Below, piece after piece: positions 16,694 through 60,369 of a stretch of DNA of 64,000 nucleotides. Position numbers and translations under genes: made by a program. Source of the stretch: Phenylobacterium aquaticum. GTDB lineage: Bacteria > Pseudomonadota > Alphaproteobacteria > Caulobacterales > Caulobacteraceae. Where the stretch lies: the NCBI GenBank assembly GCA_947378305.1, contig CANCJJ010000013.1, positions 10,097 to 74,096 on the forward strand, in the 5' to 3' direction. The notes under the pieces were generated by a model. The model made no database searches. It was not told the origin of the DNA and saw only the letters and a list, made by a program, of their open reading frames with translations. Each line of letters starts with the position of its first letter. The stretch's first letter is position 1.

Positions 16694-18001
16694 GTGTTGG
16701 CAGTGGAGGCTAGGATTTCCCGTTCACCGAGACGCGTGGCTGGCCCGTTCAGTGCATGGGAGAGGTCTATTGCGGGGCGCTATCTTCGCTCCCGACGGGA
16801 TCAGGGTGGTGTGGCCCTGATTGGACTCATCTCTTTTCTGGGCATTGCTGTGGCCGTTGCCGTGCTCATCATTGTCATGAGTGTGATGAACGGGTTTCGC
16901 GCCGAGCTGCTCGGGCGCATTCTGGGTTTTAACGGTCACGTCTATGTCAGCGGCACGGCCTTCAGACCGGATGAGCGCGGGCCCATGATTGCGCGGCTGA
17001 AAACCCTGCCCGGTGTGGTTCAGGTCTCTCCCGTCATTGAAGCCCAAGTGATGGCTCTTGGGCTAGGACAGATCTCCGGAGCCGTTGTTCGCGGCACGAC
17101 TTTGGCGGATTTGAAGTCCACTCGGCTTGTCGCGGACAATATTGTTCGTGGGTCTATGGCCGGGTTTGGCGACGGCGAGTTCGGGGGCGATGTCATCATC
17201 GTTGGCGACAAATTAGCCCAGAGCCTTGGAATTCAGCCCGGGGATCCCCTGACCCTCATCTCTCCAACCGGCGGGGCAACGGCCTTTGGCGCTCCTCCCC
17301 AGCGCAAGACCTACACGGTCGGCGGGACCTTTAGCGTCGGCATGAGTGAATATGATCAGACCTTTATCTACATGCCTCTAGAACAGGCCCAGGTCTTTCT
17401 GGGGCGGGAGGATGCCATCGACTTTGTCGAAATGAAGTTGGCCAATCCAGACAAGGCAACCGCCATCAAGCCCCAGGTGTCTGCCGTCGTGGGGTCGGAA
17501 GGGTTTGTCAGCGACTGGACAGAGAAGAACGCCTCTTATTGGGGGGCCTTGCAGGTCGAGCGGAACGTGATGCGTCTGATCCTAATGCTGGTTGTGGCGA
17601 TTGCAGCCCTGAACATTATTTCTGGTCTGATCATGCTTGTGAAAAACAAGGGTAAGGATATCGCCATCCTGCGGACCATGGGGGCCAGTCGCGGATCCAT
17701 CATGCGGATTTTCTTTATGTCCGGGGCCTCGATCGGGATACTGGGAACCTTGGCGGGCCTTATTCTCGGCACGCTCTTTTGCTTTTATATTGATCCGATC
17801 CAGCAGGCGGTGGAGTGGGTCACGGGGGCCAAGGTATTCTCCTCCGATGTCTACTACCTGTCCCGGGTTCCGGCCAAGGTGGACTGGATTGAGGTCCTTG
17901 GCATAACGGGCTGGTCCCTGGTCATGGCCTTTGTCGCGACCTTGCCCCCGGCCTGGCAGGCATCCCGCCTCGATCCCGTAGAAGCGCTTCGTTATGAATA
18001 G
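16694..18001 (+). CDS. lolC: lipoprotein-releasing ABC permease, LolC/LolE family (single copy)
   Basis: [17 protein letters not shown]... N-terminus, periplasmic MacB-type loop, C-terminal FtsX 3-TM bundle with [12 protein letters not shown]. Start ambiguous (GTG 16694, TTG 16697 or GTG 16703). The ORF is open from 16631 but overlaps the previous gene. Confidence 0.8.
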
Positions 18002-18683
18002 GTCTGTTCTTCGCCTGGAAGGCTTGTTTCGGACCTACAAGTCAGGGGATCATGACCTTGAAATCCTGAAAGGCGTCGACCTGGACCTCGTGGCAGGCGA
18101 GATCGTCGGGCTGGTGGGTCCCTCGGGTTCGGGGAAATCGTCACTCCTGCATGCTGCCGGTTTGCTTGAGGCTCCGACATCCGGAAATGTTTTTGTGGAG
18201 GGGATAGATTGCTCTCGACTGTCGGACCGTCAGAGGACACGCGTCCGGCTTGAGATGATCGGGTTCGTCTATCAGGCCCACCACCTGCTGCCAGAATTCT
18301 CGGCTCTTGAGAATGTTGCGATCCCGCAGATGATTGCCGGGGCAGGGGGGAAGTCTGCCCGTCAGCGTGCAACGGCGCTTTTGACTGACCTGGGGCTCCA
18401 TGAGCGAATTCATCATCTTCCGGCCCAGCTGTCAGGGGGTGAGCAGCAGCGCGTCGCCGTAGCGAGGGCACTGGCGAATTCCCCACAGGTCCTGCTTGCC
18501 GATGAACCGACGGGGAATCTTGACCCAGCTACCTCTGCAATGGTGTTCTCCAGCCTCTCTGAGATGGCCCGGAAGCAGGGCGTGGCGGCGCTTATTGCCA
18601 CACATAATCTAGAACTCGCTCACCATATGGACCGCGTGCTGGAAGTTCGCGATGGCGGTCTGCAACCCTGGGGTGGGGCCTAG
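17994..18683 (+). CDS. lolD: lipoprotein-releasing ABC ATPase
   Basis: Walker [10 protein letters not shown], signature LSGGEQQR, Walker B LLADEPTG. Overlaps the lolC end by 8 nt. Confidence 0.85.
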
Positions 18684-18728
18684 TCGATCCGGATGCCCAA
18701 TGTTTTTGTGCGGGGGCGCTTGCAATGA

Positions 18729-18760
18729 GAACAAAACAAGAATAGGAACGAAATAGGAAC
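18729..18760 (+). promoter_or_regulatory. tandem candidate LexA (SOS) operators, GAAC-N7-GAAT + GAAC-N7-GAAC
   Basis: GAACaaaacaaGAAT (18729-18743) and the perfect GAACgaaatagGAAC (18746-18760). They overlap the spacer and -10 region of a TTGCAA -35-like hexamer at 18720-18725. The same motif and orientation sits in front of this window's lexA. Confidence 0.6.
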
Positions 18761-18781
18761 TTAGTTTGTGGAGTCATCTAA

Positions 18782-18871
18782 ATGGTTCGTCTCGCGCGGG
18801 AATCGCTGGCTTTTGTAGCCGTATCAAGTTTTGTCTGGATGATGTGTCAGGTGGCACAGATTGCGGCTTAG
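18782..18871 (+). CDS. 29-aa hydrophobic peptide, candidate SOS-induced membrane peptide (SidA/TisB-like by context)
   Basis: GGAG (18770-18773), 8-nt spacer, ATG 18782, 29 sense codons, TAG 18869-18871. Peptide MVRLARESLAFVAVSSFVWMMCQVAQIAA has a basic N-terminus and one TM-length hydrophobic stretch. It starts about 20 nt downstream of the SOS boxes. It is too short to appear in the ORF track. Confidence 0.5.
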   Translation: MVRLARESLAFVAVSSFVWMMCQVAQIAA

Positions 18872-18890
18872 ATCATTGGGGAGTTAGCGG

Positions 18891-21800
18891 ATGAACGGGA
18901 ACGGGAGCGAAGGCTTCGTTCATCTGCGGGTTCGATCGGCCTATTCGCTTCTTGAAGGTGCCATTCGCGCGGAAGCAATTGGAAAGCTGGCTTCGGCGAT
19001 GGAGATGCCGGCCGTGGCGATTACCGACCGGGCCAATCTGTTTGGGGCCCTGGAATTTTCCGTCGCGACTAAGGAAGCCGGAATTCAGCCGATCGTTGGC
19101 TGTGCCCTGCCCGTCACCGGTATTGGGGGTAGGGCCCCGGAGCGTTGGGCAAAGACGCCCACGCTCGTGCTCCTCGCCCAGTCTGAAGCCGGTTATCTCA
19201 ACCTGTCTTTGCTATCGTCTGAGGCCTATCTTTTGGCTGAGGCGACCGAAGAGCCGGCGATAGCTTGGTCACGGCTCATTGAATTATCTGAGGGGCTGAT
19301 CCTGTTGTCCGGCGGGCCGGACGGCCCAGTAGATCCGCTGTTCGCAGCAGGCAAGGTCGATGAAGGCAATGCCGCCCTAACCGAGATGGCGCGGGTATTT
19401 GGCGACCGTTTTTACATCGAACTTCAGCGGCATGGTATGTCCAGTCAGGCCCGAAGCGAGCCCTGCCTTGTGGCCCATGCCTATGCGCATGACATCGCCT
19501 TGGTCGCGACCAATGACGTCTATTTCGCAGAGGCCTCCCTCTACAGCGCCCATGAAGCCTTGCTCTGTATTTCTGATGGGGCGTTCATCGGGCAGGAGGA
19601 TCGGCGGAAAGTCACAGAAAACCATGGGTTCAAGTCCGCCCAGGACATGAGGTCTCTCTTCTCTGACCTGCCGGAAGCTTGTGACAATACCCTGGATATT
19701 GCCAGGCGCTGCGCCTTTATGGTGCTCAAACGCGATCCAATTCTACCACGCTTTCCGACGGTAGACGGCCGGACTGAGGCCGAGGAGTTGGCCACCCAGG
19801 CCCGTGAGGGCCTCAAGGCTCGTCTTGAGAACCACGCCCTTTCCCAGGCAGAGTCCGTCTATTGGGAACGTCTCGAACGCGAGATCGGCGTCATCCAGAC
19901 CATGGGATTCTCGGGATACTTCCTGATCGTTTCCGACTTCATGAAATGGGCGGTCGCCCACGGGATTCCCGTGGGTCCGGGCCGTGGGTCGGGTGCGGGT
20001 TCGCTGGTGGCCTGGTCGCTTCTGATTACCGGTCTTGATCCGCTCCGTTACGGGCTGATCTTTGAGCGTTTCCTGAATCCGGAACGCGTGTCCATGCCGG
20101 ACTTTGACATCGATTTCTGTCAGGAGCGTCGCGAAGAAGTCATTTCCTACGTTCAACAACGATATGGCCGGGACCGCGTGGCCCAGATCATCACCTTCGG
20201 CACCCTTCAGGCGCGTGCTGTGCTGAGGGATGTGGGACGGGTCCTGCAAATGCCCCTGGGCCAGGTGGATCGCCTGGCCAAGATGATCCCTGCCAACCCC
20301 GCCAATCCCGTGACCCTGGCCCGTGCACTCGAGCTGGAACCGCGCTTGCAGCAGGCCAAGAAGGATGACGAGGCCGTCGCTCAGTTGCTGGAAATTGCGC
20401 TCAAGCTTGAGGGGCTTTACCGGAACGCCTCGACCCATGCGGCAGGCGTTGTGATTTCAGACCGGCCTCTGACAGAGTTGTCTCCCCTGTATCGCGACCC
20501 TCGCTCGGAGCTTCCGGCGACCCAGTTCAACATGAAATGGGTGGAAAGCGCCGGTCTGGTGAAGTTCGACTTCCTGGGGTTGAAAACCTTGACGGTGATC
20601 GACAGGGCCATGAAGCATCTGGCCAAGCGGGGCGCAGATTTCGATCTGGAGACCTTGCCGCTTGATGATGCCAAGTCCTACGAGCTGATGGCCTCTGGTC
20701 AAACCGTGGGGGTCTTCCAGCTAGAAGGCCAGGGAATGCGGGACACTCTCCGCCAGCTTCGGCCAAATTCCCTGGAAGAAGTCACAGCCCTGATTTCGCT
20801 CTATCGGCCGGGGCCAATGGATTCAATTCCGGCCTATGTGGACTGCAAGGCCGGCCGCAAGCCGCTCAATGTTTACCACCCCCTCCTGGCTCCGGTCCTG
20901 ACCGACACCTATGGCGTGATCGTTTATCAGGAACAGGTGATGAATATCGCCAGGATTATGGCGGGATATTCCTTGGGAGAGGCCGACCTTCTGCGTCGGG
21001 CCATGGGCAAGAAGAAGAAAGAGGAGATGGACCAGCAGCGGGTCCGCTTTGCTACCGGCGCAGCGGAGCGGGGCGTCGATACAGAGCTGGCCGAAACCCT
21101 GTTTGAGCTCATGGCCAAGTTTTCCGGCTACGGATTCAACAAGTCCCACGCTGCTCCCTATGCCCTGATCGGCTATCAGACGGCCTGGCTAAAGGCCAAT
21201 GCCCCGGTTGAGTTTTTCGCGGCCTCAATGAGCCTGGACATCTCCAACACTGACAAGCTGGCCGTATTTTATCAGGACGCCAAGCGCTCGGGGGTGAAGA
21301 TCCGTTCGCCGGATGTGAATCTTTCCAGTGCGGATTTTGACGTGCTGGACGGGGAGGTGCTCTACGCCCTGGGCGGCATTCGCAACATCGGTCTTCAGGC
21401 CATGCAGAATGTGGTTGAAGTTCGTCGTCAGGGCGGGGCCTTTCGGGATATTTTTGATTTTGTCGAACGGGTGGATCCAAAGGATGTGAATCGTCGGGCG
21501 ATCGAGACCCTGGCCCGGGCCGGCGCATTTGACAGCCTTCATCCAGATCGGGCCCAGGTGTTTGCGGCGGCTGAAACCCTCTCAGGATATGGCCAGAGCG
21601 TTGCCGCCGAGCGTGCATCTTCCCAGGGCTCGCTATTTGGCGGAGACCAGGTTGAGGCCCAAAGGCCAAGACTGCCCAAGATCGATAGCTGGACAGGGAC
21701 CCAGAGGCTGGATGAAGAGCTTGCGGCCGTCGGCTTCTACCTGTCCGGCCATCCGCTGGAAGACATGCTGGTTGCGCTACGACGTAAGCGGACCGACCTG

Positions 21801-22328
21801 TTGGCGGAAGTCATTCCCAAGGCAGAGGCCGGCTCGGAAGCCTTCCGCATGGCCGGGGTTGTGCGGCGCAGACAGGAACGGGCCTCCCAGGGGAGTGGCG
21901 AGAAATTTGCCTTTGTCACCCTTTCGGACCCAACGGGGGAATATGAGGTTCTGTTTCCGCCGGAATCCCTGAAACGGTGTCGTGAGTTTCTAGAGCCTGG
22001 AAAGGCTGTGTCCCTAAGGGTCAGGGCCAAGGCGCGTGATGGCGAGGTTCGGTTTTTCGGCGACGATGCCGAGCCGATCGAGCGTGCGCTCGAAAATGCG
22101 ATCGCCGGACTTCGGGTGCATCTCATTCCGCGCAGCGCGGAAATTGAGGCCCTACAAAAGCGGCTTGAGGGAGCCGTGAATAGTCGTGGGGGCGAGATCA
22201 TCCTCGTGGCTCCGGTCGAGGGTAGCCGCGAAATCGAATTGAGACTGCCGGGTCGATATACCTTGGACAATGGCATTCGGGGGGCCCTTAAAACGGCACC
22301 GGGTGTTGTCTTTGTGGAAGACATCTAG
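18891..22328 (+). CDS. dnaE: DNA polymerase III alpha subunit
   Basis: 1145 aa. PHP domain start [16 protein letters not shown]. Palm motifs [14 protein letters not shown] and [22 protein letters not shown]. Confidence 0.97.
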
Positions 22329-42102: not shown

Positions 42103-42798
42103 TTAGTGGTAACGGCGGATCAGGCCCACCAGCTTGCCCTGAACCTCAACCTGATCGGGTCCGAATATGCGGGTCTCATAAGCTGGATTTGCAGCCTCAA
42201 GCGCGACCGAACCGCCCTTTTTGCGCAGACGTTTCAGCGTCGCCTCTTCGCCCATGATCAAGGCCACGACAATGTCCCCTGAGGTCGCTGAATCGGTTTT
42301 ACGGATAACCACATAGTCACCGTCGAGAATGCCAGCATTGATCATGGAGTCGCCCTCGACCTCGAGCACGAAGTGCTCACCGCTCCCCAGAAGGGTCTCG
42401 GGCACAGGCATCCTGTCCCGCTCCTGCTGAATGGCGGCGATGGGGGTTCCGGCAGCGATCTTGCCCAGGATCGAAAGTTCGCGCGTGTCATTGGCGACGG
42501 CCAGACCAAGAGGCGCATCACTGGGCTCGACCAATTGCAACCTTGCTGGTCCGCGGCCCTTTGGCGGCGCCGATGTTGTGGCCTGTTGCGGAAGCTTCAC
42601 CACCTCAAGTGCACGGGCTCTATGGGGCAGGCGGCGCAGAAAACCGCGTTCCTCCAGCGCTGTGATCAAACGGTGAATGCCTGACTTTGATGCCAGGTCG
42701 AGAGCGTCCTTCATCTCGTCGAAGGAGGGCGAGACACCAGCTTCCTTGATGCGTTCATGAATGAACATGAGCAATTCGTGCTGTTTACGGGTTAACAT
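42103..42798 (-). CDS. lexA: LexA repressor
   Basis: [19 protein letters not shown] winged-helix N-terminus. Long linker. S24 peptidase domain with [11 protein letters not shown] (Ser) and ...TLKRLRKK (Lys). ATG 42798 preferred over the TTG at 42804. Confidence 0.95.
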
Positions 42799-42838
42799 TG
42801 CCAAACGCCTTCAGGAACAAATCGAAAACTCTGGCGAT

Positions 42839-42853
42839 GTTCTCTAAGCGTTC
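42839..42853 (-). promoter_or_regulatory. LexA operator in the lexA promoter (GAAC-N7-GAAC read on the gene strand)
   Basis: The plus strand reads GTTCtctaagcGTTC, 41-55 nt upstream of the lexA ATG and 9 nt downstream of a gene-strand TTGACA -35 hexamer (42862-42867). It matches the alphaproteobacterial direct-repeat SOS box. Confidence 0.7.
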
Positions 42854-48539: not shown

Positions 48540-49724
48540 ATGAGCATCTTGAACCAGACACGCTCTGTCATTGCCATGAATGTGCGCTCCATTCCCCAAC
48601 GCTTGGGAATGTCGCTTGCGACCATTGGGGCCATTGCCATGGTCGTTGCCGTCCTCCTCAGCTTTCTGGCCCTGGCCAATGGGTTCAGCCAGACCCTAAA
48701 GGGCTCTGGCGCGGCTGACGTGGCGATTGTCCTGCGTGATGGCGCCGATGCAGAATTGAGCAGTACCGTCTCGAGGGATCAGGTCGACCTCCTGGGTCAA
48801 GGCCCCGGCGTTCGCGCAGCCTCAGACGGTCACCCGATCGTTTCGCCGGAACTCATGCTGGTGGTCGACGGTGTCAAGAAGTCATCAGGGACCAAGGCCA
48901 ACATGCCTTTACGCGGTCTGGGGCCGAATGGTCTGCTGGTTCGCAAGCAGGCCAAGATCACTCAGGGGCGGATGTTTGCGCCGGGATCAAATGAGATCGT
49001 TGTCGGGGCTGGATTGCTGCGGGAATTTGCGGGATTTGAGCTTGGGAAGTCGATCCGGTTTGGGTCTCAAACCTGGAAGGTCGTCGGGGTGTTTGAAGCT
49101 CCGGGTACGGTTTTCGAGTCTGAACTCTGGGCCGACGCGCCTGTGGTTCAGAGCATGTTCAAGCGGGGGACGACCTTTCAAACCGCCCGCGTCGCCTTGA
49201 CCAGTCCTGAGGCGCTGAAGGCCTTTGCGGCCTATGCAAAGGCGGATCCCCGGCTGCAACTCAAGGCCCAGAGCGAGCAGGCTTATTACGCCGCCCAAGC
49301 GGAGCGCTCGGGAGTCTTGATCAAGTATTTTGGCTGGCCGCTTGGGATAATCATGGCCATTGGAGCCCTCGCAGGGGCCCTGAACACCATGTACGCCTCG
49401 GTCTCCAGCCGTGCCGCCGAGATTGCAACCTTGCGGGTTATCGGGTTCTCAGGATTTTCAGCCTTCATGGGCACCATGGTGGAAGCCCTGGTGCTGTCGG
49501 CGCTCGGCGCACTTGTCGGCGTAGCCATCTGTGCGGTTGGCTTTAACGGTCTTTCCGCATCGACCCTTGGGGCAGGCTTTACCCAGGTGACCTTCCGGAT
49601 TCAGGTCGGGCCGGAAATCGTGGTTCAGGCGGTTGTTCTGGCCCTGATTATCGGTCTTGTCGGAGGCATCTTCCCAGGCCTGCGGGCAGCTCGTCAAAGG
49701 CCACTCCTGGTTCTGGCTGGCTAG
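48540..49724 (+). CDS. FtsX/MacB-type ABC permease 2
   Basis: Same architecture but clearly diverged from permease 1: IPQRLGMSLATI TM1, a large periplasmic loop, SRAAEIATLRVIGFS. Confidence 0.85.
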   Translation: MSILNQTRSVIAMNVRSIPQRLGMSLATIGAIAMVVAVLLSFLALANGFSQTLKGSGAADVAIVLRDGADAELSSTVSRDQVDLLGQGPGVRAASDGHPIVSPELMLVVDGVKKSSGTKANMPLRGLGPNGLLVRKQAKITQGRMFAPGSNEIVVGAGLLREFAGFELGKSIRFGSQTWKVVGVFEAPGTVFESELWADAPVVQSMFKRGTTFQTARVALTSPEALKAFAAYAKADPRLQLKAQSEQAYYAAQAERSGVLIKYFGWPLGIIMAIGALAGALNTMYASVSSRAAEIATLRVIGFSGFSAFMGTMVEALVLSALGALVGVAICAVGFNGLSASTLGAGFTQVTFRIQVGPEIVVQAVVLALIIGLVGGIFPGLRAARQRPLLVLAG

Positions 49725-59344: not shown

Positions 59345-59385
59345 CGAGCGCGCCTGGCTCGTAGTCCACGCCAATGGAGATATTC

Positions 59386-60369
59386 ATGGCACCTGAAAAG
59401 GGTTTGCCGGACCAGCTGAAGGCCTTCTACAGGCAGATGCTCTTGATACGCCGTTTCGAAGAACGGGCAGGCCAGCTTTACGGCATGGGGCTGATCGGCG
59501 GGTTTTGTCACCTCTATATCGGTCAGGAAGCCATTGCGGTCGGGGTTCAATCGATCAAGCAGACCGGGGATCAGGTGATAACGGGGTATCGGGATCACGG
59601 GCATATGCTGGCTTGTGGCATGGACCCCCGCGAGGTCATGGCGGAGTTAACGGGCCGCGCCGGAGGCTCATCCAAGGGCAAGGGTGGATCCATGCACATG
59701 TTCTCGACGGAAGCCGATTTCTTTGGCGGCCACGGGATTGTCGGGGCCCAGGTCAGCTTGGGGACAGGCCTTGCGCTTGCCAACAAGTATCGGAAGAATG
59801 GCAAGGTTGCCTTTGTCTATTTCGGGGATGGCGCGGCCAATCAGGGCCAGGTCTACGAGTCCTTCAACATGGCCGAACTCTGGTCGCTCCCGGTCGTCTA
59901 TGTGATCGAGAACAACCAGTATGCGATGGGAACCTCTATCGAACGCTCCTCCTCAGAAACCCACCTCTACAAACGCGGTGCGTCCTTCCGAATCCCCGGG
60001 GAAGAGGTTGACGGGATGGATGTCGTGGCCGTTCGGGAGGCCGCCGCGCGCGCGGCCGAGCACGCCCGGTCCGGTCAGGGTCCTTATATTCTGGAAATGA
60101 AGACCTATCGCTATCGCGGCCACTCCATGAGTGACCCGGCAAAATACCGCACCCGTGAGGAGGTGGATTTGGTCCGCAAGACCAGGGACCCGATTGATCA
60201 CCTTCAAGACATCCTCCTGAACGATCACGGCGTTGAGGAGGCTACCCTAAAGGTCCTGGATGGCGAGGTAAAACAGATCGTGGCCGACGCTGTAGAGTTT
60301 GCGCGCAATTCCCCAGAGCCTGCGCCATCGGAACTTTACACGGATGTCTATCTGGAGGCTTCCCGATGA
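59386..60369 (+). CDS. pdhA: pyruvate dehydrogenase E1 alpha subunit
   Basis: [27 protein letters not shown] motif [10 protein letters not shown]...[18 protein letters not shown] Shine-Dalgarno 6 nt before ATG 59386. An in-frame ATG at 59374 lies inside that Shine-Dalgarno. Confidence 0.93.

Follow-up and report, generated by a model that had tools for sequence, protein, structure and literature searches.

A probable sidA gene behind tandem LexA boxes, immediately upstream of dnaE in a Caulobacteraceae genome

The open reading frame at positions 18782-18871 is, with a probability of about 95%, the sidA gene of an uncultured member of the Caulobacteraceae, heading a LexA-repressed transcription unit in which dnaE comes second. 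It lies in the 207-nt spacer between lolD (end 18683) and dnaE (start 18891) of the window, that is, of the whole stretch of 64,000 nucleotides that was analyzed. There are already publications on the gene family, the operator, the mechanism and the coupling of dnaE to the SOS response, and a curated model names the protein. The first-pass annotation had located in this spacer the TTGCAA element, both boxes, the GGAG, the ATG, the TAG and the 19-nt gap, and all of these coordinates were exact on re-reading. The features considered here are the following.

17994-18683, + strand: lolD, lipoprotein-releasing ABC transporter ATPase, upstream neighbor, given for context only
18720-18725, + strand: TTGCAA, the putative -35 element of sidA, assigned by conservation
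18729-18743, + strand: LexA box 1, GAACAAAACAAGAAT, with an imperfect second half-site (GAAT), read from the sequence
18746-18760, + strand: LexA box 2, GAACGAAATAGGAAC, a perfect direct repeat, read from the sequence, position conserved in relatives
18770-18773, + strand: Shine-Dalgarno GGAG, 8 nt 5' of the sidA ATG, read from the sequence
18782-18871, + strand: probable sidA, 29-aa inner-membrane cell-division inhibitor MVRLARESLAFVAVSSFVWMMCQVAQIAA, by NF033228
18872-18890, + strand: sidA-dnaE junction, 19 nt, unstructured, from sequence and folding
18878-18883, + strand: Shine-Dalgarno GGGGAG of dnaE, within the sidA-dnaE junction
18891-22328, + strand: dnaE, DNA polymerase III alpha subunit, by NF004226, second gene of the putative sidA-dnaE unit
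42103-42804, - strand: lexA, by TIGR00498, encoding the repressor expected at the sidA boxes
42839-42853, - strand: LexA box GAACGCTTAGAGAAC of the lexA promoter (autoregulation), read from the sequence, same orientation as the sidA boxes

The dinucleotide ag separates box 1 from box 2. The frame runs from the ATG at 18782 through 29 sense codons to the TAG at 18869-71, with the dnaE ATG 19 nt further on, and a TAA immediately 5' of the sidA ATG makes a longer in-frame start impossible. Regarding the neighbors, the top NCBIfam match of the lolD product is TIGR02211 (LolD) with 259.6 bits, under the model cut-off of 307.75, and DnaE matches NF004226 with 1418 bits, above the model cut-off. Matches of the window sequence are found in metagenome contigs and in the MAG GCA_947452335.1, the organism being known only from metagenome assemblies; in the identical contigs lolC/E-like FtsX and MacB_PCD genes are found upstream of lolD. 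Five window-identical assemblies (L081-L085) contain the spacer, the 29-aa ORF being annotated in two of them and omitted in the other three. In species-representative genomes, the closest DnaE shows 76% identity as a full match and 92% as a partial match.

The NCBIfam model NF033228 (cell division inhibitor SidA, equivalog) is matched by the 29-mer with 61.3 bits (cut-off 35; E 6.1e-17), a score of nearly twice the cut-off in an alignment covering positions 1-29 of 29. Also, a pairwise comparison with a Caulobacter-type SidA gives 21/29 identical residues (72%) and 26/29 positives with no gaps. The peptide begins with a basic N-terminus (MVRLARE), which is followed by SLAFVAVSSFVWMMCQVAQIAA, a single hydrophobic stretch of membrane-spanning length, and its best 17-residue Kyte-Doolittle mean is 1.88. 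A SidA-like peptide of 29 aa with precisely this build had been proposed by the first-pass annotation, together with a comparison with the C. crescentus protein, and the profile score, the identity to the Caulobacter-type sequence and the hydropathy value all agree with that proposal. Moreover, a protein search with the tandem-duplicated 29-mer as query found relatives carrying the NCBI name "cell division inhibitor SidA" in Caulobacter sp., Phenylobacterium sp. and P. soli, many of these proteins having over-extended start codons. In Pfam, no family was found for the 29-mer at E <= 10.

The gene is a constant feature of the family. A scan with the DnaE N-terminus gave 18 Caulobacteraceae-level loci, 16 of them with readable upstream DNA, and in 16/16 a SidA-type ORF lies just 5' of dnaE, on its strand; the ORF has 29 codons in 14, 28 codons in Asticcacaulis and about 31 codons in another locus (L016). 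When a profile made from the SidA peptides was run against 17,742 ORFs (the fetched loci plus the window), one match was obtained per readable Caulobacteraceae locus and nothing significant in the loci of other alphaproteobacteria. The spacer alignment suggested earlier bore out the coding frame: the 29 codons are open without indels in 15 sequences, with a pooled pS of 0.57 and pN of 0.25, and the window differs from its relatives by a pS of 0.53-0.87 and a pN of 0.13-0.42, values near saturation for pS, so that the pN/pS ratio is only rough. Variable columns are distributed over the three codon positions as 22, 16 and 26, and the SidA peptides hardly vary in their FVWM[MV]C core. These observations indicate a frame kept under purifying selection.

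With respect to gene order, lolD directly adjoins sidA in the window, in Phenylobacterium-like loci and in Asticcacaulis, and elsewhere 0.7-2.5 kb of DNA is inserted. The sidA-dnaE adjacency is never broken in the loci read, even where the upstream neighbor differs, and the spacer between the two genes ranges from 13 to 79 nt. Strong hairpins without a T-run are present in this spacer at two loci (L002:3916-3985, -31.6 kcal/mol; L044:3910-3988, -37.9 kcal/mol), and these could be lineage-specific attenuation or processing sites. Such an adjacency, held despite a changing upstream neighbor and across short spacers with occasional strong hairpins, would also fit a leader ORF that tunes dnaE through re-initiation or through unmasked junction hairpins, besides or instead of inhibiting division. 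However, the 19-nt junction of the window is unstructured (folding energy of 0.0) and has no space for a terminator, dnaE has its own Shine-Dalgarno sequence, and a peptide acting in trans is suggested by the conservation of the amino acids, for example in the FVWM[MV]C core. Since conservation is seen in the residues of the peptide and not, across the family, in the junction hairpins, we do not favor a leader-ORF role and regard it as improbable.

The reading as sidA is further supported by the operators. The spacer carries the direct-repeat LexA operator of alphaproteobacteria (GTTC-N7-GTTC / GAAC-N7-GAAC), detected here as sequence in the promoter region, and a same-strand tandem pair of GAAC-N7-GAAY boxes appears in 2/1000 simulated windows. 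Perfect GAAC-N7-GAAC sites as such are not enriched, with four found in the window against 1.75 expected and 9/100 shuffles reaching four; the two intergenic ones precede sidA and lexA. The other two are at 49146-49160 (-), in the ORF 48540-49724, and at 59930-59944 (+), in the ORF 59374-60369; both were rejected as operators, being probably chance occurrences within long ORFs. The LexA encoded at 42103-42804 (-) scores 187.5 bits with TIGR00498 (cut-off 110.95), and its box, GAACGCTTAGAGAAC, is on the coding strand, 8 nt 3' of a TTGACA. The sidA and lexA promoters of the window thus have a common layout, with a -35-like TTG element followed by the box, and the first-pass statement that the lexA box at 42839-53 shares the motif and the gene-relative orientation of the sidA boxes was correct.

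In an alignment of the upstream regions, a CTTG motif is found a few nucleotides 5' of box 1 in all 13 aligned Caulobacteraceae loci, only one of its columns being marked as invariant, and twelve aligned loci have it together with two GAAC-N7-GAAY repeats. In the 13 loci the GAACAAA of box 1 and the following GAA are invariant; in box 2 the first GAAC is invariant and its position is kept in relatives, and the G-rich ribosome-binding block and the ATG are aligned in place. Because a strict sigma-70 scan of 18400-19100 found no promoter, the -35 and -10 elements are putative assignments based on conservation, and box 2 is expected to overlap the -10 element and the transcription start.

For C. 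crescentus, the promoter of sidA (CCNA_02004) is reported in the early SOS class, with the LexA boxes GTTCACAAGATGTTC and TTTCTTGTTTTGTTC located 49 and 15 bp away from the coding sequence, a peak of 2009 rpm in LexA ChIP and the presence of sigma-70 (PMC12700426 supplements). Box 1 of the window is identical at 14/15 positions to the reverse complement of the second of these boxes, TTTCTTGTTTTGTTC, from which we infer that the locus works as the C. crescentus sidA does. A search of metagenome contigs with the two published boxes gave 12 Caulobacter-type loci, of which eight were read; these loci carry both boxes verbatim, and a 29-codon ORF is followed by dnaE in 8/8, with a gap of 23-36 nt (measured in five). 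In the loci L088-L098 (for example, L088:2640-2688), three direct-repeat units are present, GAACATCTTGTGAAC-a-GAACAAAACCGGAAT-atg-GAACAAAACAAGAAA, the middle one corresponding to box 1 of the window, and the published C. crescentus table lists only the outer two (PMC12700426). The window therefore differs from Caulobacter-type loci in having two boxes, 2 nt apart, instead of three consecutive repeat units, in the position of lolD, which adjoins sidA here and is about 1 kb further upstream there, and in a sidA-dnaE junction of 19 nt versus 23-36 nt.

The position of sidA immediately 5' of dnaE on the same strand would place both genes in one unit, co-transcription being expected in this organism from the published case. 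The sidA-dnaE adjacency that the first-pass annotation gave is right, since in C. crescentus sidA (ccna_02004) and dnaE (ccna_02003) form one transcription unit of 3557 bp (PMC12700426 supplements). Also, ccna_02003 is listed as an SOS gene in Table S5, and after 40 min of mitomycin C the log2FC is 3.42 for sidA and 1.18 (about 2.3-fold) for dnaE, the latter reaching 1.45 in the lexA sidA double mutant (PMC12700426). The suggestion that dnaE would come under DNA-damage control is consistent with these data; its description as notable was overtaken, because dnaE is already in the published C. crescentus SOS regulon and the coupling is therefore no new prospect. As dnaE is essential, a source of basal transcription is needed: the sidA promoter may be leaky, transcription may continue from lolD, or a further promoter may lie within sidA. 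No terminator-like site was detected by a scan of 18400-19100, which includes the lolD-sidA and sidA-dnaE gaps. No such structure was detected in the stretch from the lolD stop to the promoter of sidA (18684-18720), so that lolCDE read-through across the LexA boxes could feed the basal transcription of dnaE.

Among known systems, the nearest is SidA of C. crescentus (CCNA_02004 / CC1927), with which the window shares the 29 aa, the basic N-terminus, the single hydrophobic helix, the direct-repeat LexA boxes in the promoter and a dnaE located immediately 3' in one unit. This protein was reportedly first described by Modell, Hopkins and Laub (2011, Genes Dev 25:1328). The TisB/IstR-1 system of Escherichia coli likewise has a LexA-controlled hydrophobic peptide of 29 aa in the inner membrane, and on these grounds the first-pass annotation had also called the candidate TisB-like. 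Under this explanation, the locus would encode an SOS type I toxin that depolarizes the membrane, leads to persistence and is controlled by an antisense RNA. However, the shared length, LexA control and hydrophobic helix are a likeness by analogy only: the peptide gives no BLASTP alignment at E <= 100 to the E. coli TisB sequence that was used for the comparison and no Pfam match, and searching both strands of 18300-19200 gave neither IstR nor any other Rfam family at E <= 1, a search that leaves room for a novel RNA. Moreover, the operator of TisB is of another type, and the window peptide falls into a different family, whose characterized member acts on the divisome and not on the membrane potential. 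The TisB-like label is therefore dropped, a TisB-type toxin being very improbable here.

A chance reading frame within a LexA-regulated non-coding 5' leader of dnaE is a negligible alternative, since, although short ORFs are common (6 kb contain 78 with 20 aa or more) and the peptide is without a Pfam model, it is opposed by the SidA profile match (E 6e-17), by a 29-codon frame without indels and with pS > pN in 15 sequences, by the conserved Shine-Dalgarno sequence and ATG, and by the demonstration of SidA as a protein in C. crescentus (PMC4211646).

As a SidA, the peptide would belong with other LexA-repressed small proteins that halt division while repair proceeds, namely SulA (E. coli), YneA (Bacillus subtilis), SosA (Staphylococcus aureus) and DivS (Corynebacterium), all of them unrelated to SidA in sequence. 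SulA targets FtsZ in the cytoplasm, and the Gram-positive inhibitors are longer and have extracellular domains; YneA and SidA are both reported to act on FtsW. On the other hand, DidA of C. crescentus is, like SidA, a small protein of the membrane and blocks the subcomplex formed by FtsW, FtsI and FtsN (PMC4211646). However, DidA is SOS-independent, activated by DriD without LexA control, and binds FtsN, and it is unrelated to SidA in sequence and location.

Outside the Caulobacterales, two Cohaesibacter species have, in the lolD-dnaE gap and on the strand of these genes, a hydrophobic ORF of 27 aa (L022:3674-3757 and L025:3657-3740). The peptides are MIIRDVLALGSLITFMTMIGVWAQVLV and MIIRDVLALGSLITFMSMLSVWTQILV (start MIIRDVLALGSLITFM), and the ORF is preceded by CTTG-N5-GAACAAAAC[GA]AATAC. 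The two species differ in it by nine synonymous versus five conservative amino-acid changes (hand count), and the motif R-[ED]-x-LAL-x-S-[VL]-x-x-F is common to the Cohaesibacter peptide and SidA. No NCBIfam match was found for the 27-mer, and our SidA profile reaches it only with E about 2. It is possibly a remote positional homologue of SidA in a group beyond the Caulobacterales. Considered jointly, it is a doubtful but conceivable proposal that the lolD-peptide-dnaE module predates the Caulobacterales and that, in the lineage of the window, the LexA operators are the main gate or roadblock for the transcription of dnaE, a role they would have because the 19-nt junction is unstructured and no terminator follows lolD. 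In Roseococcus and other Acetobacteraceae (L042, L047, L049, L051 and L053), an apparently conserved 34-aa hydrophobic ORF, MRLAIASMTAMLLGLQLAMGAFFIAVLDMVRARR, lies upstream of dnaE; it was rejected as a small gene, being the C-terminus of a membrane protein of ~400 aa that ends before dnaE.

Based on the reading as sidA, a mechanism can be proposed in which family membership, synteny, operator layout and purifying selection come from the present analysis and the functional steps would follow from orthology with C. crescentus. In the undamaged cell, LexA dimers would occupy both adjacent 15-bp direct-repeat operators (18729-43 and 18746-60), and RNA polymerase would be blocked because the operators sit just 3' of the -35 element, covering the spacer, the -10 element and the start region. 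Upon DNA damage, activated RecA would provoke the self-cleavage of LexA and the sidA promoter would fire early and strongly. The 29-aa peptide, with its basic N-terminus and one hydrophobic helix, would then insert into the inner membrane and bind the late divisome proteins FtsW and FtsN, so that constriction would stop with the FtsZ ring still in place, and division would be held back until repair is complete. The SidA of C. crescentus, 29 aa long and located in the inner membrane, interacts with FtsW and, to a certain degree, with FtsN; the assembly of the Z-ring and the divisome is undisturbed by it, and its effect is suppressed by ftsW or ftsI mutations (PMC4211646). Also, the filamentation of the lexA mutant is due to sidA in that organism (PMC12700426). 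The transcript would continue through the 19-nt junction into dnaE, with a modest increase in the expression of the replicative polymerase.

Finally, the importance of the assignment is small beyond that of a right annotation, sidA being a gene that length cut-offs easily miss. The link between a division inhibitor and the gene of the replicative polymerase is biologically neat and already documented in C. crescentus. Then, for this Caulobacteraceae genome, sidA, the two LexA operators and the sidA-dnaE unit give a recognizable SOS division checkpoint.
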